From Minutocellus sp. GHC0000111 (lineage: Eukaryota), in assembly GCA_977018835.1 (NCBI GenBank), contig OZ361258.1, positions 4,588,001-4,652,000 on the forward strand: 64,000 bases of DNA. Direction: 5' to 3'. Below, in pieces: positions 2,318 to 44,500 of the stretch. Made by a program: the position numbers and the translations under genes. Position 1 is the stretch's first letter. Every line of letters starts with the position of its first letter. Under the pieces are notes generated by a model. That model did not search any database, was not told where the DNA came from, and saw nothing but the letters and a program-made list of their open reading frames with translations.

Positions 2318-2441
2318 GGTAATGATATGATGTATTGGAGTATCAATCTTGTACTTTTCCTTTGCCAGGCAAAGGAAGTTGTTGTCAGCAAGCAAGTCTA
2401 GTAGAAGTCAGATGCCGATCTGCCGATCGGTTGCGCTCATT

Positions 2442-5033
2442 CACAGCCCCATCTCGTCTTGTTTCGCCGGTCGGATGAAGCGTTTTTCGGCAGAAGACGA
2501 ACACGTCACGAAGAAACCCACCAAAACCCAATCTCGTTCGTCACCCATTCTTTGACCGTCCAACACCATGGTGGTCCGTCGGCGTTGCGCCGGCGTATAA
2601 CTATATTTTCGTACCAAATACGCATTCATTATCATGTTTGGATATAGTTGAAGCGTACTGTATCCTCAGATTGGCCTCCGCTGCGTATCAACGCCACGAA
2701 CCATCGGCCCACTTTTCCTCCATCTGTCGGCCGTTCGTTTCTCTGGGGTGGTACCATTGCTCCGTCTTTGTGCTCGTCGTGCTCCCGTTGTGATGCCCCA
2801 GACCCTCTGGTACTTTCCCACGTTGTTGTTGATGATAAACTGCCGGGATTGCGCCGCACCCCCCGTATGACCGACTCTCGCTGATCCCGACCGATCGCAT
2901 CCCCACTCGACCTCCCGGAATTCCGACAATAATTTTGCGCCCGAGAGGAGACAGATAGTGTTGGGATAAGTTTATGCAACAATCAACCCGACAAAGGGAC
3001 TTTTTGGTCTGGGAGATAAATGGGTGAGTTAAGAAGGACGTGATGTGTTTGTTTGGGTGTACTGTTTACTTTTTTGCTCAATCGCGATGCTGTTTGTAAA
3101 AGTTGGACTATGCAATTCATTTGTTGTTGTGTAGTAGCAGTGCAATTTCATTTTCTAATTTTATACATGCCCTGCTCCCATCTCTACATCCTCATCTCCA
3201 TCGGTGGCCATCATGATCATTTGTTGGCGCTTGTCATCAGTTTCTGCTTTAACAGCTTCGGTCCTTTTCCTTTTCCTTGTTCTTGCCACCCGAGAGTTTC
3301 GCTCCCGCCTCTCCTCGACCTTTGGATTGGATGCCCTCTCCTCAGCCTTGAACTGCGCCGTCTGTTGGGCCTCATATCCCTTGACGCCCTGAGTCCGACG
3401 ATCTTCCTTAACACCCTCTTGGTGGGCTCGCTCTACAAACGATTCGTCGAGCCAACAGATGCCGCCCCATCCATTCTTCACTAGCCAAATGTGTTGGTCC
3501 AAGATGTGATCTTCGAGTAAGTGCCACTTGGGCGTTGTGCTAATGCCGATTGCCCGTGCTTGCTTGAGGGCACTTGCAATCAATGCTTCAAGCTCTCTCA
3601 CAGCCTTCTTTGCCTCATCATCCCATTTCATGTGCCATTTCAGAAACCTGGAATATGTTGCGTCAAGAGTGTGGAGCAAATTAGAGCAAGCTTTGCAGAG
3701 CTCTTTGATGTCGTCATCCGTCATGCCATCTTCCTCGCGATTGTGCTCTAGGAGAGTTCCTTTGGTGGAGGTGTTGTGGTGGATGAACTCTATTGTCCTT
3801 GGTTTCTTCTTGTTGTTGCCATCAGAAATATTAACAGATAAAGCTCTCCAGCATTCTGCCAGCACTGCCCTTATTTTACCTGAGTCGGCAGCCTCAATGC
3901 CGGCCTTTTTCAGGAAATGGAAGTGAGGGGCATCGTCATCCTCGGCATCATCGACAGCTCCCATCTCTGGCTCGCCATCACCGTGCTTCTGACGATGCTT
4001 CTCAAAGTGCTGCTGCATGCATGCTTCATGTGTAGCGTCCTCTCTTGCAATATCAGCTTCGTCCTCATAACAGGGCACATAGTCCTCGTCTTCGTCGTCA
4101 TCGTCCTCACTGATCTCGCCGGCCTCCGTCGTGGTCAGGGTGCCCACCGTCCCAACATCGTCGTCATTGTCCCACCCATCGTCCTGGCCATTGTGCCCAC
4201 CAGGGAACTTCTGGGCCTCGAGCAACATCTGCCTGTTGATTTCGTAGTCCATCGCCGCATATCCCACCGATGCATGTGGTGCGACCGACTTGAGGAATGC
4301 ATTGCATGCCTTCGTCAAATTGAGCCGCGGCGGCGGTGTTTCGAGGCGAAATTGTTGCGCTCGACCGTGACCATGTCGAAAGCCATCCATCCATCATCAT
4401 GGAGAGCGTCGGCTGCACGAGGATTGATGGAGCCGAGGCGAACAAACATGCTCTTTTTGTATGGGGTTCGCTGAACGTCGTCGGCAAGGCAGTGTCTTGA
4501 TGCCATTTCATCCCATCCATTCTGGTTGTCTGTCCTCACAAAAAACACATCGCAGTCTTCGTGTTTCTTCTTCTTCAAACCCAAGATGCCCGCAGTGTGC
4601 ATGACGGCGCCGTACATGATGGGACTGCATCCCAACACATTCATCAAGGAGTCGTTGTTGTTGCCGATGAAAAATTGTAGTAATGAAGTTCCTTTCTGCG
4701 AAGACGGACGAGCAGTTCAGCAAGGGCGTCCTGCACCGCAATTCTGTCTGCGGTGTTGACCGCGGGATTGCGGCCGTTATTTTTTTTGCTCATGGAGAAT
4801 TATGGATCGAGACCAACGGGAATATCACCAGGATGTCGGGAGTACCTGGTTGGTCTCGTGCCGTAATTCTCCCACACCAGCGCGAGATATCGCCTTCGTT
4901 CTGCACGTAGCGGCGGCAATTTGAATTTTTGCCGCCATGGTGGCTCGCGCCGGTGGATTGCTTCGCGCGCCGGCCGGCCACCGAAAGTGCGACCAAAAGT
5001 ATGCGAGTCATCCGGCTGGCAGATGGTGCTGTG
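2442..5033 (-). mobile_element. 2592-bp non-autonomous DNA transposon (Chapaev/Transib-like), copy 1
   Basis: Termini CACAGCCCCATCT...AGATGGTGCTGTG (13-bp imperfect TIR). Near-identical inverted copy at 23852-26450. Flanks are CATT (left) and AGAA (right). Confidence 0.9.
3161..4390 (-). CDS. Truncated transposase, C-terminal Chapaev/RAG1-like HxxxxH...ExxxERxHQ region (409 aa)
   Basis: TPKWHLLEDH...GICWLDESFVERAHQEGVKEDRRTQG resembles the Chapaev SxKxHxLxxH...DExGERFHQ...RYQG and RAG1 TNYFHKTLAH...SEGNE segments. No N-terminal catalytic D/D region is recognisable. Confidence 0.7.
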   Translation of the reverse strand: MDGFRHGHGRAQQFRLETPPPRLNLTKACNAFLKSVAPHASVGYAAMDYEINRQMLLEAQKFPGGHNGQDDGWDNDDDVGTVGTLTTTEAGEISEDDDDEDEDYVPCYEDEADIAREDATHEACMQQHFEKHRQKHGDGEPEMGAVDDAEDDDAPHFHFLKKAGIEAADSGKIRAVLAECWRALSVNISDGNNKKKPRTIEFIHHNTSTKGTLLEHNREEDGMTDDDIKELCKACSNLLHTLDATYSRFLKWHMKWDDEAKKAVRELEALIASALKQARAIGISTTPKWHLLEDHILDQHIWLVKNGWGGICWLDESFVERAHQEGVKEDRRTQGVKGYEAQQTAQFKAEERASNPKVEERRERNSRVARTRKRKRTEAVKAETDDKRQQMIMMATDGDEDVEMGAGHV

Positions 5034-5302
5034 AGAATGGTATCAGATCATCAGCGATGAATTTCGGGGTATTAATACCTCCACCTGTCCTAAAAAATAC
5101 CCGGAAGCTAAACTAGCAGATAGAGCCTGACCTCAGCTCACACACCGACCGGCCGGGGAGGAAACAACAACCTTCTCACAGTAGATCTAGATCTACCGGT
5201 ACCCGGTACCAGTACGAGTAGCTCTACATCTACCCTACATTTAGGTCCATTAGGAATTCCTACCATAAAGGATTTCACTCAATCATTCCTCTTGCTACAT
5301 GT

Positions 5303-8300
5303 CTAAATCTTAAAATCGCCTGCTCCGATGGTGGAGGAGGTGGTAGTGGCCACGGAAGCAGCAGTTGCGGTGCCCTTCATTTCCTTGCACTTCCGAAGAG
5401 CTCCCCACTTTTCGTATGCCTCAAAGGCATTGTTGTACTGGACGCTAGCCGCCAGGGTTTCTCCAGACGACAAAAGGAAGTCGCTGTATCGCTCGCAAAT
5501 GAGGGCCTCCTCGTTTACAAAGCGATGCTCTCTTGCTAGGCGGATTGCCTTCTCATACTCTCCGGCAGCTCCGACTTGATCACCCGCATTCGCCATCTGC
5601 TCGGCCTTGAGCAACGATAGTTTATGCTCGAAGTTCCAAGCCGATGACAATTTCCACTTCTCCACTCTAGCGAGAGATGTGTTGATGATACTACCCCACT
5701 TGGAATTTGTGGGATCTTTCCTCGCCATTGACAGACCTGCAAGGCCGCCGTAAAATGAGAATATCGAGACAGTGAATCTGCCCATCAAATTCTTGTCAAG
5801 TTCGGCTTCTATACATTGATCGTACATTTCGGCTGCAAATTCATCGCGGCCGAATGTGTAGGCAAGCACCATCCTCAGCAAGTAATATTGGCAAACTGAA
5901 GTTTGCATCCCCCGCTCAATTTGTTGCCTGAGAAATGCGTCGCCTTGGATCACGCTACCCTCAAGGACCGTTGGATCTCCTGAGCCCGACTTGCCAGCGA
6001 GGATCTCAGCGCATTGCCACAGAGGAAACGCAACAGCTGTTACCAGATCCATCTTATATTGCTTGCACTCGTTTCCTAGCTCTGATAGATCCTTCACGAT
6101 GCTGTCGAGAGGCTGCCCGCACTGAAAACAGTTCATGGCGTAAATCATCATCGTCATCAAGGCATATTCTGGATCACCAGTTTCGATGGCAGCATTACGG
6201 CCATCAATCAGAGGTGAAAGAGTGGACTGAACAGGTTCGACCCATACGTTGATGCAGCTGTAAAGTGAAACATTGATCCGAGCCAACAACTCTCGCGCAT
6301 TCAGCTTTTCAACGATAGCCGCCGAAATTTTGCCAACTCGATAACCCTCGGCAAAGTTGCTTAAAAATCCGCTACAGATTACTCCGTGTGCTGAAAAAGC
6401 CGTTGCGCTTTCTTTGCACAACCCATACTGCATTGTCAGGTGAACCATCCGGCATACAACCAGGGGCAACTTCAGCACATCATTGCAATAAAGATAAAGA
6501 ATCAACAAATTCAGAAACTTCATCGTGTTGAGAACATGACTGTCCGTCATCATGTTTTGCGACATGAACCATTCCATGTCCTTGGTTTCCAGTATATTCT
6601 GAGTACGTACAACTTCTTGCATCGCCATTGTTCGGCTGACTTCCTCCTCAAAGGGCTCCCCAAGTTGATTCAAAACTTCAAAGCAGGTGCTGATGGCCGC
6701 CTTAAGGTCGTTCTGTGCGGCGCAAGCACTAGCCAGCGTGTAATATGCTCGGAGCTTATCTTTGAAAGATTGTGCTTGAGTGAAGACTTCATTTAGGACA
6801 ATAGTCATCTCCTCGTAGTTACCAGTAACATATTCAATTTCAGATAGACTTGTGTAGATGTCAAGACACAGGCTGTAGTTGTCTCTCCAATCATTATCGT
6901 CGAGATATATGAGCGCAGACCGAAGATAGATGGCAGCCGGAAGAAAAGCGGAGGAAGCAATAGCACTCTTCGCCGCTTGGAGATTCAATTGTGCGGTGTA
7001 CACCTTTTCGAACGCATTTGTAATCAATTCGGATCCTCGATTCAATTGCCCGACGCAAGTAAATAGCAAGTCTGCTTCCAACCCTTCAGTGGACAATGTG
7101 GCCTTTAAAAGACTCCGACCAAGCTGCAAATGGAACGATGGTCGGTCACTAGCACTGACAAGCGAGTAAGCGGCCTGCTGGATCTGGTCGTGGCTGAATC
7201 GATACGTAGACCCTACCTTCATCAATAGGCCTTCATCTACCGGGCGGCGCAAAAGAGCAGTCAGGCCGTTCTCTGCCGCCAGCCCGAGGCCTTGACTAAG
7301 TAATTCTAGCGTCAATGCTTGAGTCTGAGCTCCCATGCACGCAGCAACCTTGACACTCCACATTTCTGTAGCACCAAGCCTGAGCAGCTTCCTCAACATC
7401 AGATCTACTACGTTGGATTTGATTTCAAGAGCTGCAATGGCGTCATCATCCCACTCCCAACGCCGAGCACTTGCGGAGTATCGCAGCAAATTTTGACGGT
7501 GCAAGTCAGAGAGCAGCTCAACGACAAAGAGGCAATTTCCACTCGTCTTGGAGTATACTGCATCCGAAAGAGGCCGCGTCAACAAGGGTGACAACTTGAG
7601 GGTGTCGGATATTAGAGCATTGATACTGCTTTTGTCCATGCTGCTCAGCTCGATATTGAGCAATTGGACCCCGACGCCTTGAATCTGCGAAAGCTGGGGA
7701 AGGAGAGGATGGTCCTGATCAACCTCATTGCTCCGGTAGGAACCTACAAACATTAATGATCGCATTCCACTTGCACAAACAATCTCTCGGATTAAATCAA
7801 GGCTCATTGCATCGGCCCACTGTAGATCGTCGATGAAGAGAATCACGGGATGAGAGGGTGTGGCAATAGCGCTGAAGAGTCTTCGGAAGAGGTAAATTAA
7901 ACGATTCAATGCCTTCGAATCAATCTCAACATCGCCTTCTTCTTGCATTTGTCCGGCGCTTGATTGCTTCCTTTGCATATTGATGCTTTCGTCAACTATC
8001 GTCGGAACTATTCTGCGCAGATTGGGAATGAGCCTTGTAATCGCGTCGGTATCATCTCCAATGGCATTTTTAATGGCTTGGATTGTATCCATATTAGGCC
8101 CGGGGAGTAAAGCCAAATCATCGCAGAAGGCGTCCAAAGCTTGCACAACTGCCAACAGAGGTTTCGTTTGGCGAAGTGTGTCGAATTTACCGGATATGAA
8201 GTAGCCGCCCTGTTCAACTGTAGGTTGGCGGAGCTGTTGGATCAGGACTGTCTTTCCGATGCCGGAATAACCAGACACGGTCACCACCTCTGTGCGTCCT

Positions 8301-9920
8301 CCCTTCCGAATAGCCCTTTCAAACACAGACATTAGAAGTGCTGTGTCCTCATCTCGCCCGTACAATTTACCTTGAGAAAATTCGAGCCGGCTTCCAGGTT
8401 GCCCCCATCGGCATCGCGCTTCGGGTGCATCGCTGTCCTCAATGTCGTAGAGATAACGATCAGGATCGTCCACCATTAACTGGACATCAATGATGAAATC
8501 ATCAATTTCTTTGCTGTGGTCTAATGTATTTTGCACGTTCATCAACGACTTTACCAGATCATCAATCGCTACCGGTAGCCCAAGATCTCGGAGAGGGATG
8601 CAATCATTGTCCGTAGATATTGCCGTAGATGCCCGCCCACGCTTCTTCTTCGTTTGTGCATCTGGGATATCTTCCTCATCTGTGTCTGCATCGACAACAG
8701 CTGCAAGTGAATCGAAGAGGTCCGCATCTTCTTGATTCTGGAACGGTGGAATTCCAGAGAATAGCTCGTATAATACTGCACCGACGCTCACAAGATCAGC
8801 CCTGATGGTGTCGTCAAATGATTCCGAGGAGTGATGTGGGGGCTCAGGGTTGGTGTCTTTGAAGGCAATGCAGTACCCCGCTTCTTCACCAGCTGCACCC
8901 CCGGGAACCTTCGAGACACAAAGAGTCTCCGTGCCAATCACACCATTACCAAAGATCGTGCCGTTCTGGTGGTATAGTCGGACCGTCTGTAGCAGCCTTA
9001 ATGCCAACTTGGCCGCCTCGAGCTGGTAGTGCCGGTCAGCCTCTTGTACCTGACTGCCGTGCAGAGACATGGCCCGGATCATTTCGCCACTGATCCAGTC
9101 CTTCAGAGAGACCGCTCCTCTGGTTTGATCGAGAGAGAATGTGTCCGGCGAGATCGATTCTTGGGTCAGGGTGGGTGACTGCCCCCAGCCAACGACCTGC
9201 ACCGAGTCCGATGCAAGGCCGTCGAATGCATCCGGCGGATACTGTTGAACCAAGATGTTGCCATTCGCGCAGGGACCATTGCTCTTCCACCCCCAGCCAA
9301 ACCCAACATGCTGATGCAATCGGAGACGGGTCCCGATCCGTCTGACATGGTATATTCCTGCTGGTCGCCAGCCGCGCGACCGACCGAGCTGTTGCAAGTC
9401 ACACCACTTGCCCCGACTCTGATCATCGCACTTCCATTATCTACGGTGCTTCCCTTCCGATCAGATTTGCCATTGCTGCTCATATTGCCCCCGCCGGTCT
9501 TCCTCTTGAGATGGTGCTCCCCCATCCGTATCTTGTCGATGTACTTGACGTCCTTCTCCCTCAAACTTTGCTTGGCCCGCTCCAGCATCGTCGCCTCGTC
9601 GCCTCGTCGACCGGCACCCACACGTCGGCCGCGGATCTGTCATCGCCAAATCCCCACCGCGCCGCCTGCTCCTTGGTGGCTCGCTTCAGAAATCGTCCGG
9701 GAGGATCCAACCCGGTCCGTATGTGCCGACATATCTCCCGGGCAATTTCGTTCTTGCGGGCCTTGTCACCACCGCCGCACGACATGTACTCGTCCTTCCG
9801 GGAGGCGATGAGGTTGCGAAAGTTCTCGTTGCCGGGGTTCGTCACGATGCCGGCTCCCCGACCGCACAGGACGTCGTGTCGGTTGATTTGATCGGCCGTG
9901 ATGTACTCGAAGCTTTCCAT
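5303..9920 (-). pseudogene. DUF6824 + degenerate kinase-like + COG3899-type AAA ATPase + helical-repeat protein; 5' part frameshifted
   Basis: DVLCGRG..NPGNENFR..GRFLK (DUF6824, 9561-9920). An 8-bp duplication at 9593-9608 and a second frame change near 9290. The main ORF 5303-9397 has YGRDEDTALL, Walker A GYSGIGKT and Walker B ILFIDDLQWAD. Confidence 0.7.
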
Positions 9921-10115
9921 GGGTGCTGAGGATGGTTGTGCTGGTTTCTTCTTGTTCTTCTCTTTGTTGTTAGCTTTGGTGCTGGTGCTGGTTGGTCGTC
10001 GTTGTTGTTATTGGCTGTGCCTACGCCTTCTGATGCTTGTGTCGGAGCCGACGAAAGGCCAGAAGCGGTAGCGCTAACGCCGCCATGATTATCAACGCCA
10101 TCGGTATGGGCACCG

Positions 10116-10253
10116 GCGGCGATGATAGCGCCGATGGCAAAAAGCACATACCAATTGGTACATGTAGTGTTATTGGTACAATTGTTATTTGATACACGTA
10201 GGAGCGGCGGCTCGGCTCATCGGCCATGTTGATGTAGTCGAAAACGAGGCCTA
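10116..10253. repeat. 138-bp direct repeat, copy A
   Basis: gcggcgatga...aaaacgaggccta matches 12040-12177 with a few substitutions. Confidence 0.9.
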
Positions 10254-10292
10254 GGAATTCCTACTACTCAACACATTATATAAATCATTATT

Positions 10293-10530
10293 GACTCTGT
10301 GTGCCTTTCCCGATCCCTGCGGCTCCTGATACGAGTAATCCGTGTACGATCGCAAGGCCAAGCCTCATGTTTTACATGTAGGCCCCATTTTGACTGGAAA
10401 AGAACGGGCTGCGCGGAAATCGACTCTGTGTGCCTTTCCCTGCTGATGATAATCCGTGTACGATCGCAAGCCTCATGTTTTATTTGTAGGCCCCATTTTT
10501 TTGGAAAAGAACGGGCTGCGCGGAAATCGA
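10293..10530. repeat. Imperfect tandem duplication (units about 129 and 109 bp)
   Basis: gactctgtgtgcctttccc...ggaaaagaacgggctgcgcggaaatc starts at 10293 and again at 10422. Confidence 0.85.
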
Positions 10531-10909
10531 TCCAGAGGTACTGCATGCCGTGCCATCCCACACACATTTTGCCGGGATGGTGCACTTCGCCATGAACCGA
10601 GATGTATGCCTGGTGGTGCCGCGATCTGTTGTTGCTTGTTCGTCCTGTTTTCCTGCGTTGTATTTTATTGTAGCATTGTAGGCCTACCTAGGTACAGTCA
10701 TCGGAGTCGCCAGCACTTCGCCGAGAACGAGACCATGACACATAAAGTCCTAAAAGCAAAAAAAAAAACACTACAAATCTACACCCGAATCAATCAATCA
10801 GTCATCGAGGGTACCTAATCAAGTGGTGGCACAGATCACAAATGTGTCAGATCTGCAGCGAAGATGGGGGGCCTACATGTAGATCTAAGCCGACGAATCG
10901 GCCTTCCGG

Positions 10910-11503
10910 ATGGCACTAGGCGGCGCGCCCGAGAACGGTGGGTCGGACACGGCAGACCAAAGTCCGAGGCCGAGGCCGTCGGACCAAGCAGGTGTAGAAC
11001 TAATGTGCCTAGCCGGAACCCGAGAGCCACAGAGGCATCGGGTGGTGGCTCTCTCGGACAATTGTGTAAGGCAGGCCGAGGCGACCTTTCACGTGCCCGC
11101 AGGTGGCAGAGCAGTCTCTGTTCCACTTGTTGTTGGCGAGATGAGAGGCCAATGCTCGGAGTCGTCTCCGAAAACAATGGCGCCGCCACCTGAAGAAGGC
11201 GGCGCCTCTTCGGCAAGCTTCGTCCAAGCATGTCAAGAGGCAAGTGATGTGGCCAGAAATGCACGCCGAAAGGAATTACGCCTTCTCTTCCGTCCTCACA
11301 AGAAGGAGCATCACTACATGGCCTTTGCAACGGCAATCAACGAATTAGCTGAACAAGAAGACAGCGCGGATAGCGATGTCGACAGTCACGACAACGACGA
11401 AACACTGGCGATTGAACTCTCCCTCTTGAGGAACATTGCAACACTGCTTCGTCCAAGGAAAGCAGAAAAACACTTTCTCTACACGGGGAGGGACATTCTG
11501 TAA
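10910..11503 (+). CDS. Hypothetical protein or gene remnant between the 138-bp repeats
   Basis: 197-aa ORF with a helical/acidic segment; downstream frames are interrupted by stops. Confidence 0.25.
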   Translation: MALGGAPENGGSDTADQSPRPRPSDQAGVELMCLAGTREPQRHRVVALSDNCVRQAEATFHVPAGGRAVSVPLVVGEMRGQCSESSPKTMAPPPEEGGASSASFVQACQEASDVARNARRKELRLLFRPHKKEHHYMAFATAINELAEQEDSADSDVDSHDNDETLAIELSLLRNIATLLRPRKAEKHFLYTGRDIL

Positions 11504-12039
11504 ATTGCAAACAACATTGAGCGTGCGCAGCATTTAAGTGCTGAATAAGTCAGAAAGGATGCATTAGAACATCTATTGCATAAGAAAGCTCGATTCGGCG
11601 CACTCTAAAACAATTCATCCACGGCATGCGTAGTAGATGATGACTGTGTGAAAAAGAACATTTAATAACCACATCTCCATGGCATTGTGATAATTAATCT
11701 AGTCAGCCTCGATGGGCCAAATCTCCGGCTTTTTCATGGGATGAAAAGTAAACAGAGGGTGATGGATTGGTTCAACATCTTTGGGTAGCTCAAAAATGGG
11801 TGCAAGACACAGGGGCTGAGAGACTTCGCCAAGTTTGCCACCATTTCTGCCACCTTTGCCACCCCCAGCGGCGCTGCCATGTTCGGACGCCCCTGCCTTC
11901 CCATCGTCGAGGTCGCACTGGGCTTCGACGGCTTCAACGAGATGCTGGCCAATAGATTCCGTCGTGATTTCCTCCCTGTCGACTATGGTGATTCATTCTC
12001 AAGTCGGGATGGCATGCGCAACGAACCGTTGTGTTCCAT

Positions 12040-12177
12040 GCGGCGATGACAGCGCCGATGGCAAAAAGCACATGCCAATTGGCACATGTAGTGTTATTGG
12101 TACCATTGTTATTTTATACACGTAGGAGCGGCGGCTCGGCTCATCGGCCATGTTGATGTTGTCGAAAACGAGGCCTA
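12040..12177. repeat. 138-bp direct repeat, copy B
   Basis: Matches 10116-10253. Confidence 0.9.
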
Positions 12178-12642
12178 CTAGTAGCTAGGAATTCCTGCTA
12201 CGGGTAGCTACGTAGAAGTGCAGGCCTACAGCACTGTAGCCAAAAGCCACTTCGATCGAACGAGTCCACTACGATTTAACACTTGAGTCGAGCCAGTCCA
12301 TTCATTCTCTACTTTCAGCATTCGGATAATATTAGAAACATCAGGGAAGGAAAGGAGCAAAAGGGGAAAAACCAACTCTCCATGGGCTTCCACCGTCATC
12401 CTCCGGCCCAGCGAGCACCGCCTCCATCGCGTATCTTGACCGAAGCCCGCTACGGCAACACATCTTGTGCTGTTGAAGGTTGCAAGATAGATCTACCAGC
12501 AGCCCACCGCGGAGCATCCCTTTGTTAGCGCTCTTTCATTCTTTGCGTACCAGGCGCCAATAACCAAAGCGGAAGGGCGCACGAAGTATTAGTAATCGGC
12601 GCAAATCTCGAAGTAAACAACCCCAAACGCCAACTCAAAATT

Positions 12643-15600
12643 ATGGCGACCGCCGTCCTCTCGGCTCCAGGCGGCGGCATGGGGTCCGGCCCTGCCTCTG
12701 CCCCCACCTCTGCCCGTCCGGTGTCCACGGCATCGGGCCTGCTGGCCATGCTGTCCGAACCGTCTCCCCAATTGGTCTCCGCCGCCCTGACCAAACTATT
12801 GGCCGTCGTCGACACCCTCTGGCACGAGGTGGCCGAATCCCTCCCGGACCTCGAGGCCATCGCCGAGGGTGCCTCGGGTACTACCGGTGCAGCCGATGCG
12901 GACGACGTGGCCGTCCCGGGCCTCGACCTCCCCTCCCGCCAGACCGCCGCGGCCATTGCCTCCCGGGTGTACTTCCATTTGGAGGAGCCCGTCCAATCCC
13001 TCCGGCTGGCCCTCGATGCCGGCGTCCAGCATTTCAACCCAGCGGCAGAGGGGAGCCGGGGCGACCCCTACGTCGAATGTCTGGTCGGGGCCGCCCTCGA
13101 GGCGTACGTCCAAAAGAGCCGGGGGGAGCACGACGCCGCCGTCGAGTCGGCCGGTGCAGAAAAGGGAGGGGCAGATGGAGGAGGAGACGAAGACGACGAC
13201 GACGAGTCCACCCTCCTCGATCCCGCCAAGCTGGCCGCCCTGGTCGACCTCATGTTCGTCCGGTGCTACGCCGACGCCACGCACGCGCACGCCCTCGGGG
13301 TGGCCCTCGAGGCCCGGTCCCTCCCCAAGATCGCCGAGTGCCTCACCAGGTCCGGCGAGGGCGACGGCACCGACGACGGCACCAAGACCCAGCTGGCCAC
13401 CCTCCGGTACGCCCTCGACGCCGCCGTGGGCCTAATATCCGACAACCGCACCTTTCGGGACGAGGTCGTCACCATCGTCTCCCGGCACCTGGCGGACATA
13501 TTCACCTCATCGACCAGCGGATCCACCGTGCACAGCGCCGCGGCCGTGGCCCTGTGCGTGGCCTACCAATTGCTGAACCAGGCCGACGAGGTGGGGGCGC
13601 TGCTGACCCAACTGTTGGTGGGAGGCGTGGAAGGCGAGGTGTTGCTGGGGTTGCAGCTGTGCTTCGACATGGTGGACAGCGGCGACGAGGTGTTCGTGGG
13701 GGCCGTCGCCGGGGCCCTCCCCGCCAAAACGGCTGCCGCTGCTGCTGTCGAGGGTGAGGGAGGGGATGAAACCACCACCGCTCAAACCAAGGACGAGCTG
13801 TCCACCGAGGCCCACTCCGCCCTCTATTCCGCCCGCAAAATCCTCACGGGTGGATTCGTCACCGAGCTGTCCCTCTCCTTCCTCCACAAGAACAGCAATT
13901 CCGATCCCCTCCTTATGGACCATCTCAAAAAGGCCCTCGACGAGAGGGGCAACTCCCGCAACTCCGTCTTGCACAATTGGGGAGTCGGTACGCACGCCGT
14001 GCTGAATGCCGGTACGACCAATGATTCGTTTTTGAGGGACAACCTCGACTGGATGAAGAAGGCCAGCAATTGGTAAGTCAGGCCAAGTGACATCAAGTGA
14101 CATGAGAGTTGGACCAATTTTGTGGGTGGAAGATGTGGAAAGATCCATGAGATGCAAGTCTCTGCATTCATTCCTTTTGGTGCTCACTATGTATTTTTAT
14201 GCTTTTTTGTCTACCCTAAAACAAAAACAGGGCCAAGTTCTCCGCCACGGCTTCTCTTGGCGTCATCCACGCCGGTCATACCACCGAGGCCATGACCCTC
14301 CTCGAGCCCTACCTCCCCCCGTCCGCGGAGGCCGAGGGCGGCGCCCCTCCGGCCGTCAACGCCGCCGGTGGATATGCCGAGGGTGGCAGCCTGTACGCCC
14401 TCGGCCTCATCCACGGCTCCCGGTCGGGCTCGTCCGCCGCCAAGCGCGACGAGGCCGCCGCCTTCCTCCGCACCCACCTGCGCAGCTCGCACGCCAACGA
14501 GGTCATCAGCCACAGCGCCGCCCTCGGCGTCGGCCTCACCGCCTTCGGCAGCGCCAACCTCGAGGTCGTCAAGGAGCTGCTGTACACCGATTCGGCCGTC
14601 GCCGGTGAGGCCGCCGGCATGGCCATCGGCATGGTCCTGGTCGGGTCCGGTGCCGGCAATGCCCACTCCTCCCTCCCCAACGCCGCCGAGGCCGAGGAGA
14701 TCGCCGAGGCCGTGACCGAGTTGCGCAACTACGCCCGCGAGACGCAGCACGAGAAGATCATCCGCGGTATCTCCATGGGCATCGCCCTCGTCCAGCACGG
14801 TCAGGAGGAGAACGCCGACGTCGTCATCGAGGAGATGCGCTCCGACCGCGACCCCATCCTGCGGTACGGGGCCATGTACTCCCTCGCCATGGCCTACTGC
14901 GGCACGGGCTCCAACAAGGCCATCCGCATCCTCCTCCACACGGCCGTGTCCGACGTCAGCGACGACGTTCGGATGGCGGCCGTCATCGCCCTCGCCTTTG
15001 TGCTGTTCAAGACCCCCGAGCGCGTTCCGCAGCTCGTCAAGCTACTGCTGGAGAGTTTCAACCCCCACGTCCGGTATGCCTCGTGCATGGCCGTCGGCAT
15101 TGCCATGGCCGGTACCGGTGACGCCGAGTCCGTCGCCCTCCTCGAGCCCATGCTGGAGGACATGACCGACTTTGTTCGGCAGGGCGCCCTCCTCGGCACG
15201 TCCATGATCTACATGCAGCAGTCCGACTCGTGCAACCGCCGGAAGGTCAAGTCGTTCCGGGAGAAGCTCGCCTCGACCATCAGCGACAAGCACCAGAGCA
15301 CCCTGACCAAGATGGGCGCCATCCTGGGCACCGGCATCATCGACGCCGGTGGCCGCAACTGCGCCCTGGACCTCGGATCGAGGAATGGCTTCACCAAGAT
15401 GTCCAGCGCCGCCGGTCTTGCCCTTTGGCTGCAGCACTGGCACTGGTACCCCATGATGCACATGTTCAGCCTGGCCCTGACCCCGACCTTTACCATCGGT
15501 CTCAACGGAGACTTCAAGTACCCCAAGAACTTTGAGATCCTGTGCAACTCCAAGCCCAGCGTCTTTGCCTACCCCAAGCGCCTGGAGGAGAAGAAGGAGA

Positions 15601-16244
15601 AGGAAAAGAAGCGTGTTGAGACTGTCACTCTCTCCACGACGGCCAAGAACAAGGCCAGGCTGGCCCGTAAGAAGGCCGAAGAGGATGGCACCGACGCCAT
15701 GGATGTCGACGAAAAGAAGGAGGAGTCCAAGGAGGGTGAAGAGAAGAAGGAGGACGGCGACAAGATGGACGTTGATGGTGAGGATGGCGAGAAGAAGCCC
15801 GAGAAGAAGAAGCGTGAGCCGGAGCCCACCTCCTTCCGCATCTCCAACCCCTCGCGTATCACCAAGGCTCAGGCGGAGCTCTGTGCATTCGATCTGAGCC
15901 AGCGATACCGTCCCATCCTTCCTGAGGAGAGGGTCAGTGGTGTTATCATGCTCACCGACTCGACTCCGGGCGAGGAGGAGGACCTCGGTGCCGTCAAGCC
16001 TCCGTCGATGGAGGTTGAGGGTGAGGCCGATCCGCCTGAACCTTTCGAGTGGGCCCCGCCTGGTCACGATGACTACCGCGAGGGTCTTCCTCCTCCTCCC
16101 ATTCCCGAGCCGGAGGAGAAGAAGGATGAGGATTCCGATGACAAGGAGGATGAAGAGGGATCCAAACCCAAGAAGCGCGAGGAGGATCACGAGGAGGATC
16201 TCGGCGGACCAGGCCTCGTTGGAGGCGCGGCCGAGTCCTCGTAG
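12643..16244 (+). CDS. RPN2: 26S proteasome regulatory subunit RPN2/PSMD1; 2 exons (intron 14073-14230)
   Basis: NAGTTNDSFLRDNLDW..SNW|AKFSATASLGVIH, YAEGGSLYALGLIH, ETQHEKIIRG, SDVSDDVR, ESFNPHVRY and IDAGGRN. The GT-AG intron joins the frames. Confidence 0.97.
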
Positions 16245-16351
16245 ATGCCAAAAGATATAGTAGCGGGCTAATTTGATCTGATCATATCATGTATAAAATG
16301 TAGTAGCGTGAGCGTTTCGCGCGAGTTACAATGGTGTCTTATTGCCTCTAG

Positions 16352-19083
16352 CTAGCGAGCAGGACGCCGATTTCCCAAGACTTTGGTGCTGAAAGGCATT
16401 GTTTGCCTACCTCTTCCAGCAATGAGGGAGAACCACGAGAACGAAACAGCGTCGGCAGGCGACATTTTAGCAAAAGTAGAGGATACAGGAACAGCTATGT
16501 ACCTGGACGCGGAAGCAGAGGACGCCGGTATCATCCTATAATTCTTGTCCAAAAGTTGAGCTTTCTCTAACTCGTTCTTCAGTTCCTTGGCCTTTGGCTT
16601 TTCGACATACGCCACATCTGTTATAGATTCCTTGGTGCTTCACGCTGGTAGCTTCGAAGATGCGCTTGGTGCTGTTGCTTTCGTTCCCAGTCCACTGATA
16701 TTTCCTCGGGGGCTGTTGCGACGAGTTGGATGGAAAGTTACGTGGTAGCTTTCCGCAAAGCTCGGCCCAAATGCGAATGAAGATATCCCGCCTCCAGCCA
16801 AAAGAATACTTGGCGGATTGCTTTCGAGAGAAATGCAAGTGTGCCTGACAAGCGACCCCACATCTATTTTGTCAGATGTGCCGCCGTCAATGAGGCGACA
16901 TTTGACTGGTATTGCCTCCAATCTTAGTTTGTTGCCCTCCACCTTTGCTCGACAAAGGCTCAATGCCGAAGTCGTGGTGTTAGGAGTGCTTGGAACACCG
17001 CCGCTGACGACCATAAGCGAACTTGATTGAGATCCATCTTCTATGCAGCACCCAGATGAAGCAATCCTTGCTAGTTGGTCATCTTCTACCATACCATGGG
17101 AAAGCGTAGTTATTGAGTGATTGCTCCTCTCAAGATCAAGTGTGAGTAGCATACTAGTAGGTGTAGTAATTGGCGCATTGCCATTGGCGTCCAATACGTC
17201 AGAAGAAAAAAAAAGATTGGCAGGATCACCGTTTCCTCCAAAAATATAAACGAGTTCTTGGTTGTGATCGGTCTCCGGCTGTGATAGTCGTACAGAGACA
17301 TGTTGAAAGAGACTAACTTCGCCTTTCACTGTTTCCCAAAGAAAGTGGCAGTGAGATATACCGCCTCTTGCTCCTTCATAGCCAGGAGGGGTCACGCTTA
17401 GAACATGACACGTCGGTACAATTCCCTTGGTAGTACGACCACCGCAAAGCACGGCAAGGCGACCATTCTTCCCTGACAATGCCGTTAATGTATGGCCCCA
17501 CCGAGCAGCAGGCGGCTCTCCGCGTACATCGGTCGGTCTCCAAAACATGTCTTCTCGGTATCCATCCTTTGTATAGACCAAAAGTTCGTTTGACGGTTGC
17601 GCAGGACTTCCTCTTCCACCAAAAATAGCCACTAACATTGCACGCATATTGAAGAGCGTTTCACGTATGTCAGAGTAGTGGTCGCTGCGCCTCAGTTGAT
17701 CCCGATCGAAATCAAACGCAGGTAGCAAGCACGCCGCGAGACCCTCCCGTGCGCCAAGAGTCGCATGCTGCAAGAGAATGTTGTTGATCACCGAGGTCTC
17801 GAATCGATCTGGCAACGGACCAGCCATTGCCGGAATTCGTTCCCACCCGCGGCCCGGGTCGCCGTCGCTGGACCACCGGCCGTATGCGTGTTCTATGTGA
17901 TACACTGCGTCGGATCGTTTGGCGCCTTCGCCGCTATGTGGGCCCATCCCGTACCTAGGTATCCTCCGAAGACGTCAATTTCAACATCGTTGGCGCTACT
18001 CGTGTGTAGCTTCGGCGTTTTTACCGCGGCGTGTCCCCACAGACCCAGCTTGGGCAACGGTTCAAAGATGGCTTCGTATTCTTCCACACTCGTTTCAACA
18101 GAGCCATTATTGTTTGCTTTGCCGTCACCTCCGTATCCTGTCGTGCTCTTGGGGACAAACAACTCCCCCTCCACCAGCTCATAGAACCTCCTCAGCTTGT
18201 TCTCATTCGCCACAAAGCGTTGGTTGGCCTCCCACACCAGCGCCACCACATAGTCGTCAGTGGGCCGCAGCGCCCCCCTCCGGCCCAACGGCACGGTCAG
18301 ACCCAGCCCAACTCCCCGTATCGCCACGGTCACCCGCTTGGGCGTCGATACGATCCCGCTCTCGCGAAATCCCAGCGCCAATGCCAGCGACAGAAGCTTC
18401 TCGGCACGGAGCAGGGTGGAGGCCGCCACGTGCAGCAGGAGGGGCTCGTGCTTGAACATGAGCGTCGGTGGTGCATCTGCACATGTTTCTTCCGCTGCAT
18501 CGGTATCAGCAGTGCCTGGTAGATTGTCATTGAGTATATCAATCAATTGCTGCGGATCGATCTGCCCGTGCGACGACAGCGCCCACCGGCCGCTGCCCTT
18601 GCCGCTGCTGGTCGCGTTGTCTCGTTCCGGTGCACTTGGTTCTGCATCAACAGCACCACTGGTGTCTTCATTCGAATTGTTTGCGTCGGCCTCGGCCTCA
18701 GCATCTAAATCTGCCGTACTAGAAGTGGCCGACGGGTCAAACAACGCAATCCGTCCGCTGCAGCTGCTCAGCGTGGCGTAGGCGGGGTGGGCATTGAGCA
18801 GATCCACCAGCGGTCGGATGGCCTCGTCGACGCTTCCTTTAGGACTCTTGTCTATAAATAGTTGGAGCGGATGATGATGGCCGGATTGGATCCCATAGAG
18901 GGCACGGAGGGTCTTGGCCCGGATGTCCCGGAAGGAGGGGAGGAGGACCGTGCCGGGGTCGTCGAGGTAGTTGTGCTGCAGGGCGAGGTTGAGATGCTGA
19001 GGGCGGTGGCTGCGGCTGGAAGGAGAGGAAGAAGAAGAGCCTGACCCTGCCGCTGCGTCCATTTCCTGCTGCTGGTCGCTCAT
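16352..19083 (-). pseudogene. TYW3: tRNA wybutosine-synthesis TYW3 + kelch fusion (TYW2/3/4-like), disrupted
   Basis: DKSPKGSVDEAI..TLSSCSGRI, FKHEPLLLHV and GFRESG (TYW3); kelch ARWGHT/LCGG/IFGG. An 8-bp insertion at 17951-17958 and an in-frame TGA at 16640-16642. Confidence 0.8.
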
Positions 19084-19134
19084 CTTGCCCGTGGACTTGC
19101 CTCCCACCTCTGCCTTTTTCATTGAGCAAGGGCA

Positions 19135-19200
19135 GCACGAGAGCACGAGAGCACGAGATGTGCAGAGTGCAGAGTTGCAGAGTGCAGGCAGAGTGCAGAG
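19135..19200. repeat. Short tandem motifs (GCACGAGA)3 and (GTGCAGA)n in the divergent TYW3/VPS60 intergenic region
   Basis: Read directly from the sequence. Confidence 0.7.
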
Positions 19201-19665
19201 CCGTTCGGCCATTTTCAGAAATTTCTTCTGTCCGTCGACCGTCCATTTTTTCTGTCCGTCTTCCGCAGTCCCGATAAAACGAAGGAAACCAAGACTGGAC
19301 AATGAACAATCTTGCCTTTTGCCTCTTGCCTCGTCGTTTGCGTTCTCAACATCACACATCTTGTGGAAAGGTAAGCAAGGAAGAAGTTTAGAGCCTAGCA
19401 TGGCGGTTTCCCGGCCGGGCCTTCGGTGGTGTATTTTTGTGTTGGTTTTCGTGCTGGGGGATTTGCCGATCTTCATCTCCATGCCGGTGAACTCGCCGTG
19501 TGCGGAAAGATGGGCAATCGATCGCAAGATACCAATTATTCCCTCCCACGACCCCGCCCTCATGAGCATTTATGCCATTATCTCACCAATTCAATCTATG
19601 CTTCTTCATGTCACCGACTGTATCATCTTCTTGGCACGTATCAAATACAAACCCAACCCAACAGC

Positions 19666-20322
19666 ATGAATCGAGTATACGGAAAGAAGAAGGCACCGGG
19701 ACCGCCGGCCCCATCGCTCGGCGAGGCCTCCGAGGGGATGGACAAGCGCGGCGGCGGCATCGACAACAAGATCGCCTCCCTCGACAAGGAGCTCAAAGGG
19801 TACAAGGACAAGCTCAAGACGACCAAGAATCCCGCGGCCAAGAAGCAGATCCAAAAGCGCGCCATGGACGTCCTCAAGCGCAAGCGAATGTACGAGAAGC
19901 AGCGCGATCAGGTCATGGCCCAGCAGTTCAACGTCGATCAGGCCCAGTTCAACATTGAAAGTGCCAAGGCGACGGTGTCGACGGTCGCGGCTATGAAGCA
20001 GGCCAATACCGAGCTCAAGGGCATGATGAAGAAGGAGCTGAACATTGACGACGTCGATGACATTACCGACGATTTGGCCGACCTCATGTACGATATGGAT
20101 GAAATCAACGAAGCGTTGGGACAGAACTTTGCCACCCCCGAGGATATCGACGAGGCCGATTTGGAGGCCGAGCTGGACATGCTGGATGATGAGCTGGAGG
20201 AAGAGCTGGCCGAGACGGAGACGCCGTCGTATTTGCAAGAGCCGCAGCTGCCGGCGCAACCGACCGGATTGCCCGGGGTGAAGGCCCCGGCCGAGGGAGA
20301 GGAGGAGGCGTTGAATGCATAG
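19666..20322 (+). CDS. VPS60: ESCRT-III Snf7-family protein Vps60/CHMP5
   Basis: MNRVYGKKK..PAPSL, KRAMDVLKRKRMYEKQRDQ..QQFNVDQ, EINEALG and DEADLEAEL. Confidence 0.9.
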   Translation: MNRVYGKKKAPGPPAPSLGEASEGMDKRGGGIDNKIASLDKELKGYKDKLKTTKNPAAKKQIQKRAMDVLKRKRMYEKQRDQVMAQQFNVDQAQFNIESAKATVSTVAAMKQANTELKGMMKKELNIDDVDDITDDLADLMYDMDEINEALGQNFATPEDIDEADLEAELDMLDDELEEELAETETPSYLQEPQLPAQPTGLPGVKAPAEGEEEALNA

Positions 20323-20453
20323 GGTGCTGGTTTCGTACACAGGTGGAGACCTACTACTACAATTTACATTTACGATAGAGCAATTGGCAATTGAAGACAT
20401 GTGTTCAACATGATTTCTTTGTACGCTTTGCTCAGCATTCATAACCTTGGTCT

Positions 20454-23400
20454 CTAAGCACAGAGGCCATCGCTTCCGCAAACAATCTTGCCGGTGCCTG
20501 CTCCCAATAGAGTTATACCAGGGACAGAGTTGTCGACAGTGTAAGTGTAGCTCGGCAGCTCAACCAGATCTCCAACGTCGATGTTGGCATGACAATTTCC
20601 TGCAGGGCTATTAGTGTACACATTATTCCGTTCGGCGGCATTTCCGGGCTGTCCCGGTGGATTCCCACTATAAACTCCAACGCATGTGTCAATGGGATCC
20701 TCTACATTGTCAAAGTAGTTGCCCTCGACGAGAACATATGCTCCCATGGCACTGCCAATGGCATAGGATTCCACATTCTCATAGTAGTTGTTGTAAACGT
20801 GGACAAGCCTGGAGAATCGCACTCTTGGCATTCGCTGGTCGCAGTCGACAAATCGATTGTGATGCAAGGTAATGTGGAGATCGTCCTCGTCGCCCACTTC
20901 ACCATTATCGGACCCGATTAGCATTGCCCTGAAGTCATTGTTGTCGTTATTATCAGGCACAACTTCATAATCATTGAAAGTGTTCCAAGAAATGGTGATG
21001 TAGTCGGAGCCCTTCTTGATATCAAGAGCACCGTCGGTACCTGGCGCTGGTTTGGAGAACGAGCAGTGGTCGATCCAGATGCACTCGGCTCCATCTTGGA
21101 TACCGATTCCATCGAAACCATCGGGGGCATTTTCGATGTTGATGTTGCGGATGATGATGTTCCTATCCTTGGCAGAAAATTTGTTTCCATCGATTCGAAG
21201 CTCGGCGCCCGAGAAACCGGACCTAGCCCCGAGCCCCAAGATGGATTTGTCGGAGGCGATCCGGTAGAAGGGCTTATCGTTGCAAAAGGTAGCACCACTG
21301 GTACAAGTGGGTGGAGGGCCTAGCATGCCGTTGACCAGGATTATATACTTTCCGTCTCTCTTTGCGTAATCGTAGAAGCTTTCTTCGTCGCCGACGCTCA
21401 CTGTGACAGCTTGGCCACCTTGGCCACCGGTAGTCCCGCTCGTTTCACAGTGGTTGCCGGTGGTAATTCCAGCAAATCCCACGAGATCGTAGTTGAGAAC
21501 GTAGTTGGGCACAATCGTAAATTCCACCCGGTCGGGATCCGTTACCATATTGACAACTCCATCGTCTCGCTTGAGCTTCATCTTGGCATTCAGGTCATCA
21601 CCAAGCGAGGCGGTAACTGATGCTAGGGGAATCTCAAAATACCAAGAGTCTGTGGCGGGGTCAAATTCCAAGTCTGGCTTAGCTTCTCTATCCCCATTGA
21701 CTTTGATTTCAATATTGTAATCCCTGACAATATCATTGAAGTCGTTGTGAATAGTGGGGTCGTTAGGATCATAAGACGGGTCGGTGACATCAAGGTCAAT
21801 AAGAAAATCCTTGTTCCACATAGCTCCCCAAAGGATGGTGTTCTCGGGCACTTCACAAGAGCTGGGGCATTCATCGCACGACGCCCCAACGTCCGCCGGT
21901 GTACCACAGAGAATGATTGGTTCGCTATCTTCCGTCTCTTTATATCCCAACACATAGCCTTCATCTCCCTCGCCAACAAAGGTATCTTGGATTTCAGTTG
22001 GTTTGGGACTTGGCGCCTTGCTCGGGGATCCAGATGGAGTTCTCGAGGGCTAGATATAGTTTAATAATGAAACAAAACAAATGAAAAAAGAGCCGTCTAT
22101 GATGAGCAGGCGATGCATTATATACGTAGTGCCACACATGGCGGAATATCGCTTGGAAGAATTCGTTTGACGTACCGTTTGAGTGGGGTAGGCCGATGGA
22201 CGAGGCGAATTGCTCGGCGACGGCAATGCTTTGGGCGTGGCTCAGAGGAAGGTAAGTACGAAGGAAAAGACGACGGGATATCGGTCGGTTGTTTCGTTGG
22301 TGGTCTAGAGGGCTGTCGAGTGAATAAACGTCCAACGAAGTGTGAGAAAAAAAAGGAAACAAGATGACGACGTCCGATTCTTACAATTAAAATAGAAACA
22401 AAGGTACCATCCCAGCACAAGATTAAATCGCCTGGCTCACCATCTGAGAGGGATTGACCGACGGCTGGGGCAATTTACTCGGCGCAGGGGATGATTCAAA
22501 CGTGGGTGGGTTCGATGGTTCCGAGGATGGCAAACCTTAGCGATGAATGGCGGTCGTGTTCAAGAAATGCGGGAAAGAGATTATATTAGCAACGGTATCA
22601 GAATAAATCAGCTATCACAGGCAGACCGACACACATTAATACTCTCACCTGAAGGGAAGAAAGACGGGACATCGCTCGGATTATGAGAAGGAGATCTAGA
22701 AAGGGTCGGTTCCATTGAGGGTTCTCTGCTTGGGAGTGAGGAGGGTCTATCAGATGGCTCCGAAGTCAGAGGAGGTGGAGGAGGCGGAGCTTCATCGATA
22801 ATTGTAAGCTCGAATCTGTCTGTCTGCAGCTTCTCTCTATCCTCGTCTTCGATTTTTTGCTTTGCAGTAATGATCCAATTTTGCCAATCATCCTGGGAAA
22901 TCACGTTAGAATCACTACCAAGATCGACCTCAAAGCTCCAAATCGAAGCTCCAAATGGCTCCTGGCTGTTGCCCTCGAATTTCATGGAACCTTTGGCAAC
23001 TCTGTCTCGGTCGTTCTTCACCTCATATTCCGTCTTCTTCAAGTTGGAATCGGTTGGCCCGTAGACACCGTTCCACCAAATCAAACCACGTAGGATTGCC
23101 GTACGAGGCACCTCGCCCGAATCCGGGCAGTTGTCATCACAGTCACCATCCTGACAGATGATTTTGTAATTGGTCATCGATGGGCCATAGGCGAGAAGAT
23201 ATCTGGAATCAGAACCCTCGGCCAGCTGCACCTGTTGTGACTGTTGTGACCTCCTCGTTCTCTTGCTGCTGCTGATCGTCTGGTGATGGGTTAAAAAGTC
23301 GAGACGATTTCGGTGGGTTGAAGAGACCACCACGGCGTCGTGCTTGGAGTTCTCGGGCGTCAATGGTCGAAGGAGATTCAACGTGTGCACTCTTGGCAAT

Positions 23401-23556
23401 AATCTGATCGCGGCTTTCGTCGACCAGAACACTTATGTCCTTCGGCGAGACATGCGCCCCATCGTGATCTGCCGATGGACTTCGAAGATTAATGTTGTCG
23501 TTGGCGCGGGAAGTGGCAGCCAACAGCGTCGAGCACATCAAGTGAACGAGCTTCAT
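20454..23556 (-). CDS. Secreted multi-exon protein: signal peptide, two related Cys-containing modules, Pro/Ser-rich linkers, C-terminal PL1 pectate lyase; probable frameshift near 23250
   Basis: GFA..TTGG.GG..VTV, WIDHCSF, DGALDIKKGSDYITISWN, ITLHHNRF..QRMPRVRF and HVYNNYY (20454-21953). Upstream PSxxPS exons and an MKLVHLMCSTLLAAT leader. Internal exon boundaries are approximate. Confidence 0.75.
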
Positions 23557-23851
23557 GTTGCGCGCATGGTACAATTCTTGTGAGATGACGAGGACGAGAG
23601 AACAACAAGCCGATAATTCTTCACGTGAAAAGCCCCTCGAGCGTTGAAGATGACGCGCACTGCTGCGAAGTTAATCATCTGCCTCTCATCCGCATCAGCA
23701 GGCAAGGTTGGGCCACCCGCCAAAGTTTTTTACAGAAGATGCCCGATGTCCATCTATCTTGACGAGAACAAGCAGGAACAAGGTGGGCAGGCTCGGAACG
23801 GAAGATTGAGTCACCCTATCCAACTTTTCGGTGATTAAAAGATACTCAATG

Positions 23852-26450: not shown

Positions 26451-26508
26451 TTCTGACAGAAGACAGCACAACACCCTCCAAGAGGAAAGGATAGCGCCCC
26501 CCGCCATC

Positions 26509-27333
26509 ATGTCAAAGGCGAACCCAACCTACTATGACATATTGGAGCTATCGGCCAAGCCCCGCACTGCGGTGACGTCTCTGGACATACGAAAGGCCTA
26601 CCGTCGTCTTGCGCTCCAGTACCACCCTGATCGAAATGCCGGCCCTGACCAAGAGCAATGCAAGGTGAAATTCCAACAGATCAGCCATGCGTACGAGGTG
26701 TTGGGTGACGAACAACGTCGAAAGGAGTACGATGGTCTCTTGGACCAGGGGCTGGATGAAGATGCGGACGGGGCCGTTGCGACAGGGACAAGCGGCGCAG
26801 GCAAGGCATATTCCACGACCAGACCAAGCTATTCCAACCCCTACAGCGTCTTTGACGAATTGTTCCGGAATGATCCATTCTTTTCCAAGGACATGGACGA
26901 TGAATTCGCACGGCGATTCCAAGAGAAACAGAATGATAGTGGAGAGGCAGGCGCGGGCGGAAGTACAGAAGAACCGTCATTCAATAACACGTGCACCAGC
27001 CTCCTATCGCTCCCTAAATCCGTCAAGAGCAAGGGAGGGGTCGGTCGGTGGCTTCTTGATAAAATGGGTGTGCAGGTAACAGTCACTTCGTACCGCACCG
27101 AAATGGATGGGACAGTATCCGCCAGTACCTACACGAACACCGGAACACCTGGAACGTATACAGACAAGAAAACACGAACATACATCAATGGCGAGGGAAA
27201 GCGTGTGACCATAAAAAGCATGGAGAGAGACGGAAATCGGATCGAAGATATGTGTGTCGACAATGAGCTCAAGGAGCGAAAAGTGAATGGAAAGGTTGAG
27301 CCGTTGAGCAGTGGAACAATAGCAGATAATTGA
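26509..27333 (+). CDS. DnaJ/Hsp40 J-domain protein (DNAJB6-like)
   Basis: YYDILEL..IRKAYRRLALQYHPDRN..FQQISHAYEVLGD..RKEYD; ATG at 26509, 58 bp from the transposon end. Confidence 0.9.
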   Translation: MSKANPTYYDILELSAKPRTAVTSLDIRKAYRRLALQYHPDRNAGPDQEQCKVKFQQISHAYEVLGDEQRRKEYDGLLDQGLDEDADGAVATGTSGAGKAYSTTRPSYSNPYSVFDELFRNDPFFSKDMDDEFARRFQEKQNDSGEAGAGGSTEEPSFNNTCTSLLSLPKSVKSKGGVGRWLLDKMGVQVTVTSYRTEMDGTVSASTYTNTGTPGTYTDKKTRTYINGEGKRVTIKSMERDGNRIEDMCVDNELKERKVNGKVEPLSSGTIADN

Positions 27334-31221: not shown

Positions 31222-31248
31222 TAGCTAGCTAGCTAGCTAGCTAGCTAG
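31222..31248. repeat. (TAGC)n self-complementary microsatellite
   Basis: About 7 units read directly. Confidence 0.9.
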
Positions 31249-34177: not shown

Positions 34178-34581
34178 TAAGTAATAGGAGGGTATCGCAA
34201 AAGAGTGTATTAAGTTAGCAGAGTAATGATTAACAGTTTCAAAGCATAGAGCCTAAAGACATGATGTTATGTAGTCACCGCTACTACGTAGATGGCAATG
34301 GTTTGAGTTATGCATTATTCGATTCTTTGTATCTTATTGTTTCTTACGATGTGTTGTATTTGAGTGACATATAGTATGTGCCTCGCTTTTCCCTCCCTTG
34401 ACTTATGTTCTTCTCGATTCTTCACTCTCCAGATATTCCATTGGTGATCTAGATCTACAGATCTACAGAGAGTAGATTGTGCTGCCGGTGATCCGGCGCT
34501 AATCGTTTCGTGGAGATAGATATATGAGTGCAGAAAGTGGCACAGTCCAGTCTGTTCCTTTGCCGTCCAATCATATCTCAA

Positions 34582-44379: not shown

Positions 44380-44500
44380 GCAGCGGAGTACCGGTGTTAA
44401 ATAATACGCCATTGTAATAGGAGGGTATCGCACAAGAGTTTCTAAAGTTAGCAGATCTATGCCTATGCGCTTGACTTTGTTTGCAGTATCCTGGTTTCGT

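Follow-up and report, generated by a model that had tools for sequence, protein, structure and literature searches.

We analysed a 64,000-nt stretch (hereafter the window) of the diatom Minutocellus sp. GHC0000111 (assembly GCA_977018835.1, contig OZ361258.1, positions 4,588,001 to 4,652,000), in which two copies of a RAG1/Transib-like transposon lie in opposite orientation at the two ends of an 18.8-kb block of host genes. The copies, 97.9% identical, have exchanged their target-site duplications (TSDs), the pattern expected from inversion of the block between them; all differences between them lie in two arms around a perfectly identical core. We favour an inversion by ectopic recombination between the copies, accompanied by gene conversion, and assign this reading a probability of about 0.6.

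A preliminary description of this DNA had placed four tetramers flush with the element ends, and we confirmed all of them: CATT and AGAA at copy 1, AATG and TTCT at copy 2 (Table 1; the two insertion sites are called A and B). As assembled, neither copy has a TSD: for k = 2 to 10 there were zero matching pairings. After swapping of the flanks both sites match, at k = 4 only over the same range of k; the joint chance of the two matches is 1.2e-5 (from base frequencies, uncorrected). The element ends are intact in both copies and all four junctions are base-perfect. No third copy was found in the 64-kb window. The same description had proposed a block flipped by recombination or by aberrant transposition. 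This proposal is supported, and the exchanged TSDs, a published signature, fit both mechanisms: according to the accessible text of the source, they arise either via ectopic recombination between insertions, giving chimeric copies, or via insertion of a hybrid element, giving identical copies (PMC2775673).

Table 1. Coordinates of the element copies, their target-site duplications and the block between them (positions in the window)
Feature	Position	Strand	Basis
Outer TSD of site A, CATT	2438..2441	+	flank pairing
Element copy 1, 2,592 nt	2442..5033	-	copy alignment
Transposase remnant in copy 1, frameshifted	3164..4736	-	match to aa 1-328 and 901-1097 of P0094
Core in copy 1, 1,393 nt identical to copy 2	3268..4660	-	copy alignment
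TSD of site B on opposite strand, AGAA, left end of inverted block	5034..5037	+	flank pairing
Inferred inverted block, 18,818 nt	5034..23851	n/a	swapped TSDs; no open reading frame cut at either end
TSD of site A on opposite strand, AATG, right end of inverted block	23848..23851	+	flank pairing
Element copy 2, 2,599 nt	23852..26450	+	copy alignment
Core in copy 2, identical to copy 1	24236..25628	+	copy alignment
Outer TSD of site B, TTCT	26451..26454	+	flank pairing

Between the copies there are 32 differences (26 substitutions and six indels), 15 in the 373 nt of the 5' arm and 17 in the ~830 nt of the 3' arm, with zero in the 1,393-nt core. Were the differences spread uniformly, a difference-free interval of 1,387 nt would have a probability of 7.5e-10, and it arose in 0 of 200,000 simulations; the clustering remains when doublets are merged (P = 6.8e-9) and when just the 15 events outside TpA dinucleotides are used (P = 1.5e-4).

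For comparison we used the transposase family of the element, which comprises more than 200 sequences, grouped in 18 clusters and mostly located on Mb-size contigs. Clusters were sampled at up to 15 members each; family counts are based on 109 of 119 proteins, 10 distant relatives being left out, and pairwise comparisons on proteins passing length and identity filters (77 of 114 in one comparison, 97 in another). In the coding core region the family proteins differ by a median of 5.4% of amino acids, and 2 of 2,208 pairs show no difference (77 of the 114 proteins); therefore, the identity of the cores is not due to coding constraint. Both cores also carry a 2-nt frameshifting duplication, seen in 0 of 52 family proteins covering it, and an N-to-H change, seen in 0 of 65. 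Since neither shared change occurs in the family proteins, the shared core is not simply close to the common state of the family. The arms have a substitution divergence of 2.2% (26 of 1,205), compared with 2.1-2.8% implied for unrelated copies. It is because the arms diverge like those of unrelated copies, while the core is privately shared, that we favour recombination with conversion; the privately mutated identical core favours it over aberrant transposition without settling the choice.

Thirteen of the 22 transitions between the copies are changes of TpA to CpA/TpG (14.5% expected, P = 1.7e-6), and the observed/expected ratio of TpA is 0.40-0.44 in the copies vs 0.57-0.61 in the remaining window. 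All six TpA changes of the 5' arms fall in copy 2 (6 versus 0). TpA changes of this kind also dominate among the variable residues of the family, where replacements of Y by H/C and of I by T/M/V prevail. CpG decay was considered as the cause of the copy differences and rejected: the CpG observed/expected ratio is ~1, and TpA is the target. A comparable TpA-biased change, TpA hypermutation, has been published for Bigelowiella natans (bioRxiv 10.64898/2026.01.13.699255); in its accessible text, which does not mention diatoms, the measurements concern viral inserts in a chlorarachniophyte, whereas here it is a feature of a transposon in a diatom. Literature searches for TpA hypermutation in diatoms gave nothing relevant.

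With recombination and conversion, the history of the locus would run as follows. One element would have inserted at site A and another, independently, at site B, each making a 4-bp TSD and each using transposase that a full-length copy provided in trans. The copies would then have diverged, chiefly by TpA-to-CpA/TpG changes and small indels, until one repair event copied one core onto the other along a conversion tract of ~1.4 kb. The same event would have been resolved as a crossover inside the core, flipping the block between the copies. The present copies would thus be chimeras: the old A element would have consisted of the 5' arm of copy 2, the core and the 3' arm of copy 1, and the old B element would be the reverse. 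Diatom homologues were reported, in the accessible text, to recombine in ~4 of 100 divisions, a figure that is allelic, not ectopic (bioRxiv 10.1101/2020.11.08.373134); given such frequent recombination between homologues, mitotic repair is a plausible setting.

The closest published parallel is inversion 2z3 of Drosophila buzzatii, generated by the transposon Galileo (PMC2775673). The two cases share opposite-facing copies at the breakpoints, exchanged TSDs, retained flanking DNA and the same two candidate mechanisms. For 2z3, chimerism was shown from divergence of the terminal inverted repeats (TIRs), and empty alleles were sequenced. The present case has 13-bp TIRs, an identical core as its evidence, a RAG1/Transib-like element and a 4-bp TSD, and it is known from one assembled sequence.

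Several observations weigh against recombination with conversion. The load of TA dinucleotides gives no consistent phase (10 versus 4 in the 5' arms, 33 versus 32 in the 3' arms), and the test for private changes shared in the arms, which reached just 57-195 nt in each, says nothing for or against chimerism. Orientation and phase are known from the assembled sequence alone. The control protein collection contains 0 of six host open reading frames (ORFs) and 0 of two element ORFs of the window; these proteins may thus stem from a different strain or may have been called differently. Furthermore, 3 of 77 pairs of family proteins on same-length contigs are within 0.5% of each other, vs 0 of 3,473 pairs otherwise (Fisher 1e-5, the pairs being non-independent). 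These are P0091/P0094, P0072/P0075 and P0001/P0032. The members of the first pair are identical over aa 209-1061, with five events nearer the ends (P = 0.003), and share private residues 62 and 152, which lie outside the identical run. The three pairs may represent additional local duplications or inversions, and since local duplication occurs in the family, the case for insertion of a hybrid element is strengthened.

Such a hybrid-element insertion, followed by divergence of the arms, with the core either re-converted later or spared by a patchy mutator, is the most serious alternative, although we consider it unlikely. It yields the same TSD pattern (PMC2775673, accessible text) and explains the private core changes by descent. 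The confinement of near-identical pairs to same-length contigs agrees with it, as do the identical middle of P0091/P0094 with its differences near the ends and private residues shared outside, and the patchiness of the TpA changes in the 5' arms. However, it expects full identity, and the copies differ at a level similar to that of unrelated copies. Because the non-TpA events avoid the core as well (P = 1.5e-4), hybrid insertion needs a second event, most simply conversion.

Somewhat less probable still is an artefact of assembly, in which two normally flanked copies were present and the assembler crossed between them in the identical core, or polishing equalised the cores. Assembly graphs built from short reads mis-join at long perfect inverted repeats, and that of 1.39 kb found here is a site of this kind. 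Inversions between inverted repeats are visible only with reads of 10 kb or more (PMC9879454). Yet both full copies, with 32 distinct differences, are resolved in an N-free 64-kb window in spite of a family of more than 200 members, which suggests a long-read assembly. A collapse during polishing should, moreover, favour common alleles and not a private frameshift.

A flip made by the transposase itself, with both inner (5') ends cut, the block rejoined in reverse and the identity of the cores produced by a separate conversion, appears quite improbable. The RAG hybrid joint is just such a reversed rejoining after cutting; the full-length relative of the element is RAG1/Transib-like and both inner junctions are indeed 5' ends. 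Against this, rejoining of hairpin ends is usually imprecise and all four junctions here are base-perfect; the reaction would also require pairing of two like ends, and by itself it leaves the identity of the cores unexplained. Finally, that no TSD survives and both 4-mer matches are accidental is scarcely credible: only two sites define the 4-bp TSD, but their joint probability is 1.2e-5, and 4 bp is within the 2-5 bp range given for the CMCT clade in the accessible text of PMC12730594.

The element has 13-bp imperfect TIRs beginning with CAC (CAC..GTG), with one substitution at position 4 of the 5' TIR of copy 2. Both copies correspond to aa 1-328 and 901-1097 of the full-length relative P0094; a deletion has removed ~570 aa, and with them the CxxC motif and the first and second of the predicted catalytic Asp residues. 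Judged from their sequences, the window copies are internally deleted, non-autonomous transposons, predicted to be unable to move alone because of the deletion and the frameshift. Among 114 family proteins, three are of the full-length type (920-1,097 aa) and 58 carry a deletion junction identical to that of the window copies; short, deleted derivatives united by a single deletion junction are likewise known from Nozomi/Kodama (PMC12730594; bioRxiv 10.64898/2026.08.26.747230). Transposase relatives with 31-71% identity, some with internal deletions of their own, were found on short ENA contigs (P0009, P0014 and P0115), so the lineage appears to occur outside this genome. A transposase search of metagenome contigs gave 12 candidates, of which 0 were confirmed.

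Past the TSDs, the 5'-side flanks of the copies (5038-5057 and 23828-23847) agree at 13 of 20 bases (nominal P 2e-4, post hoc) and the 3'-side flanks at 7 of 20. One-sided target preference is possibly the source of the 5' resemblance.

The element is best described as RAG1/Transib-like, probably a member of the CMCT clade (EnSpm, Mirage, Chapaev, Transib and RAG1), with its superfamily not fixed. P0094 contains C632-x2-C635 and H978-x4-H983, both conserved in the 31%-identical P0115, and its catalytic residues, predicted from RAG1 motifs, are presumably D516, D615 and E1008. The 4-bp TSD of the window copies agrees in length with that of Chapaev (4 bp) and differs from the canonical 5 bp of Transib. 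As defined in the accessible text of PMC12730594, the CMCT clade has C(2)C/H(3-4)H motifs, 5'-CA..TG-3' termini and TSDs of 2-5 bp. The assignment is made because the full-length relative has the C(2)C and H(4)H motifs, and the CAC..GTG termini and 4-bp TSD of the window copies fall within this definition. TSD length is said to be labile within Transib, with a CMC range of 2-4 bp, in the accessible text of bioRxiv 10.64898/2026.08.26.747230.

In contrast to known members of the clade, the transposase has a long coiled-coil insertion (~aa 730-850) and no sequence match in Pfam (0 of 3 proteins above threshold, none better than E 0.06) or in PDB sequence searches. Foldseek gave nothing at E <= 0.001; RAG1 rows appeared at E 0.30 and 0.54 amid noise. 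The structure model has low confidence (mean predicted local distance difference test, pLDDT, 42). In the VIA comparison its residues ~699-1003 align with amphioxus RAG1-like BbRAGL (6b40; Z 10.2, 3.4 A, 154 residues aligned) and with HzTransib (6pqn; Z 8.6, 3.4 A, 140 aligned). These two are the only ones of 50 rows to cover that region at low root-mean-square deviation, with Z scores tied with those of coiled-coil rows; most remaining rows align the coiled coil alone at similar Z. In the Atlas, RAG1 clusters score 0.90-0.95 and rank behind unnamed, mostly cnidarian clusters.

A partly similar transposon is AanRAGL from the stramenopile Aureococcus anophagefferens: it too is RAG1-like, has TIRs that start with CAC and inhabits a unicellular stramenopile. 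Its TSDs are 5 bp long, its TIRs are bipartite and it carries a RAG2-like gene (PMC9435367), whereas the internally deleted window copies lack such a gene and have TSDs of 4 bp. A weak Pfam match to RAG2 (E 0.016) falls in the host Kelch gene and not in the element, and was rejected. The label N-RAG-TP was also dropped, as N-RAG-TP resembles the RAG1 N-terminus (PMC8355894, accessible text). No paper on Chapaev or Transib elements of diatoms was found among titles and abstract openings of mainly open literature.

Pfam searches recovered most of the genes that the preliminary description had listed for the block, namely an AAA gene (AAA_16), RPN2 (RPN2_N/RPN2_C), TYW3 plus Kelch and a pectate lyase; VPS60 was upheld only to the level of the Snf7 family, and a DUF6824 gene absent from the list is also inside the block. 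DUF6824, a domain linked to diatoms, and the compact arrangement of the genes agree with a diatom host. Every breakpoint is intergenic and no ORF is interrupted. Site A is ~120 nt upstream of a likely gene start at 2317 and ~295 nt upstream of the gene start at 23556; site B is ~270 nt beyond the stop of the AAA gene and ~55 nt upstream of the start of a DnaJ-domain gene at 26509. The same element end faces each flanking gene in both orientations. As the intergenic spacers (330-420 nt) are plausible in both orientations, the layout does not confirm the ancestral gene order. Since no gene is cut and each retains the same neighbouring element end, the flip is expected to have little effect: it is probably near-neutral, an effect on the cell being unlikely, and is predicted to be reversible. 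Any effect on genes is predicted to stem from the insertions and not from the flip. An exact 26-nt flank search of metagenome contigs for the locus of a relative gave 0 matches.

Some further features were observed at and around the block. A frame at 26257-27333 (+) is open from within the 3' end of copy 2 into the DnaJ-domain gene, for which the element could be the source of a promoter or N-terminal extension. Beside site A, a membrane-protein gene at 776-2317 (-), which we take to be HTTM-like (Pfam gives just a weak DoxD match), contains an in-frame TAA at 2188 that separates the likely start from the long ORF; this could reflect a null allele or an error in the sequence. Within the block, direct repeats of 138 nt (96%; 10116-10253 and 12040-12177, ~1.9 kb apart) bracket a tandem duplication of ~110-130 nt (10290-10530) and a 197-aa ORF with no Pfam match, and the segment they bound is possibly another insertion. 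Elsewhere in the window there are a 42-nt direct repeat (90%; 34181-34222 and 44414-44455, 10.2 kb apart) and a perfect 26-nt palindrome at 31222-31247.

The locus indicates a RAG1/Transib-like family present in multiple copies and having TSDs of 4 bp, of a kind not found described for diatoms in the texts available, and no transposon-bounded inversion of a diatom was described among the matches listed (main texts of mainly open literature). Inversions locally suppress recombination in heterozygotes, and such suppression is a possible exception to the neutrality of the flip. It is conceivable, though doubtful, that members of this family themselves generate paired copies nearby, through hybrid insertion or local hops, and that repeated conversion then holds the cores of such pairs identical, with the result that blocks like the present one switch orientation to and fro in living clones. 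If true, the family would act across the genome as a source of reversible micro-inversions, which a TpA mutator would date, and the three near-identical same-contig pairs would count as additional instances of paired-copy flipping. The route of rearrangement itself is textbook, well known in flies and yeast and matching the published Galileo pattern; the present locus would be a clean example of that route, with an apparent conversion tract.

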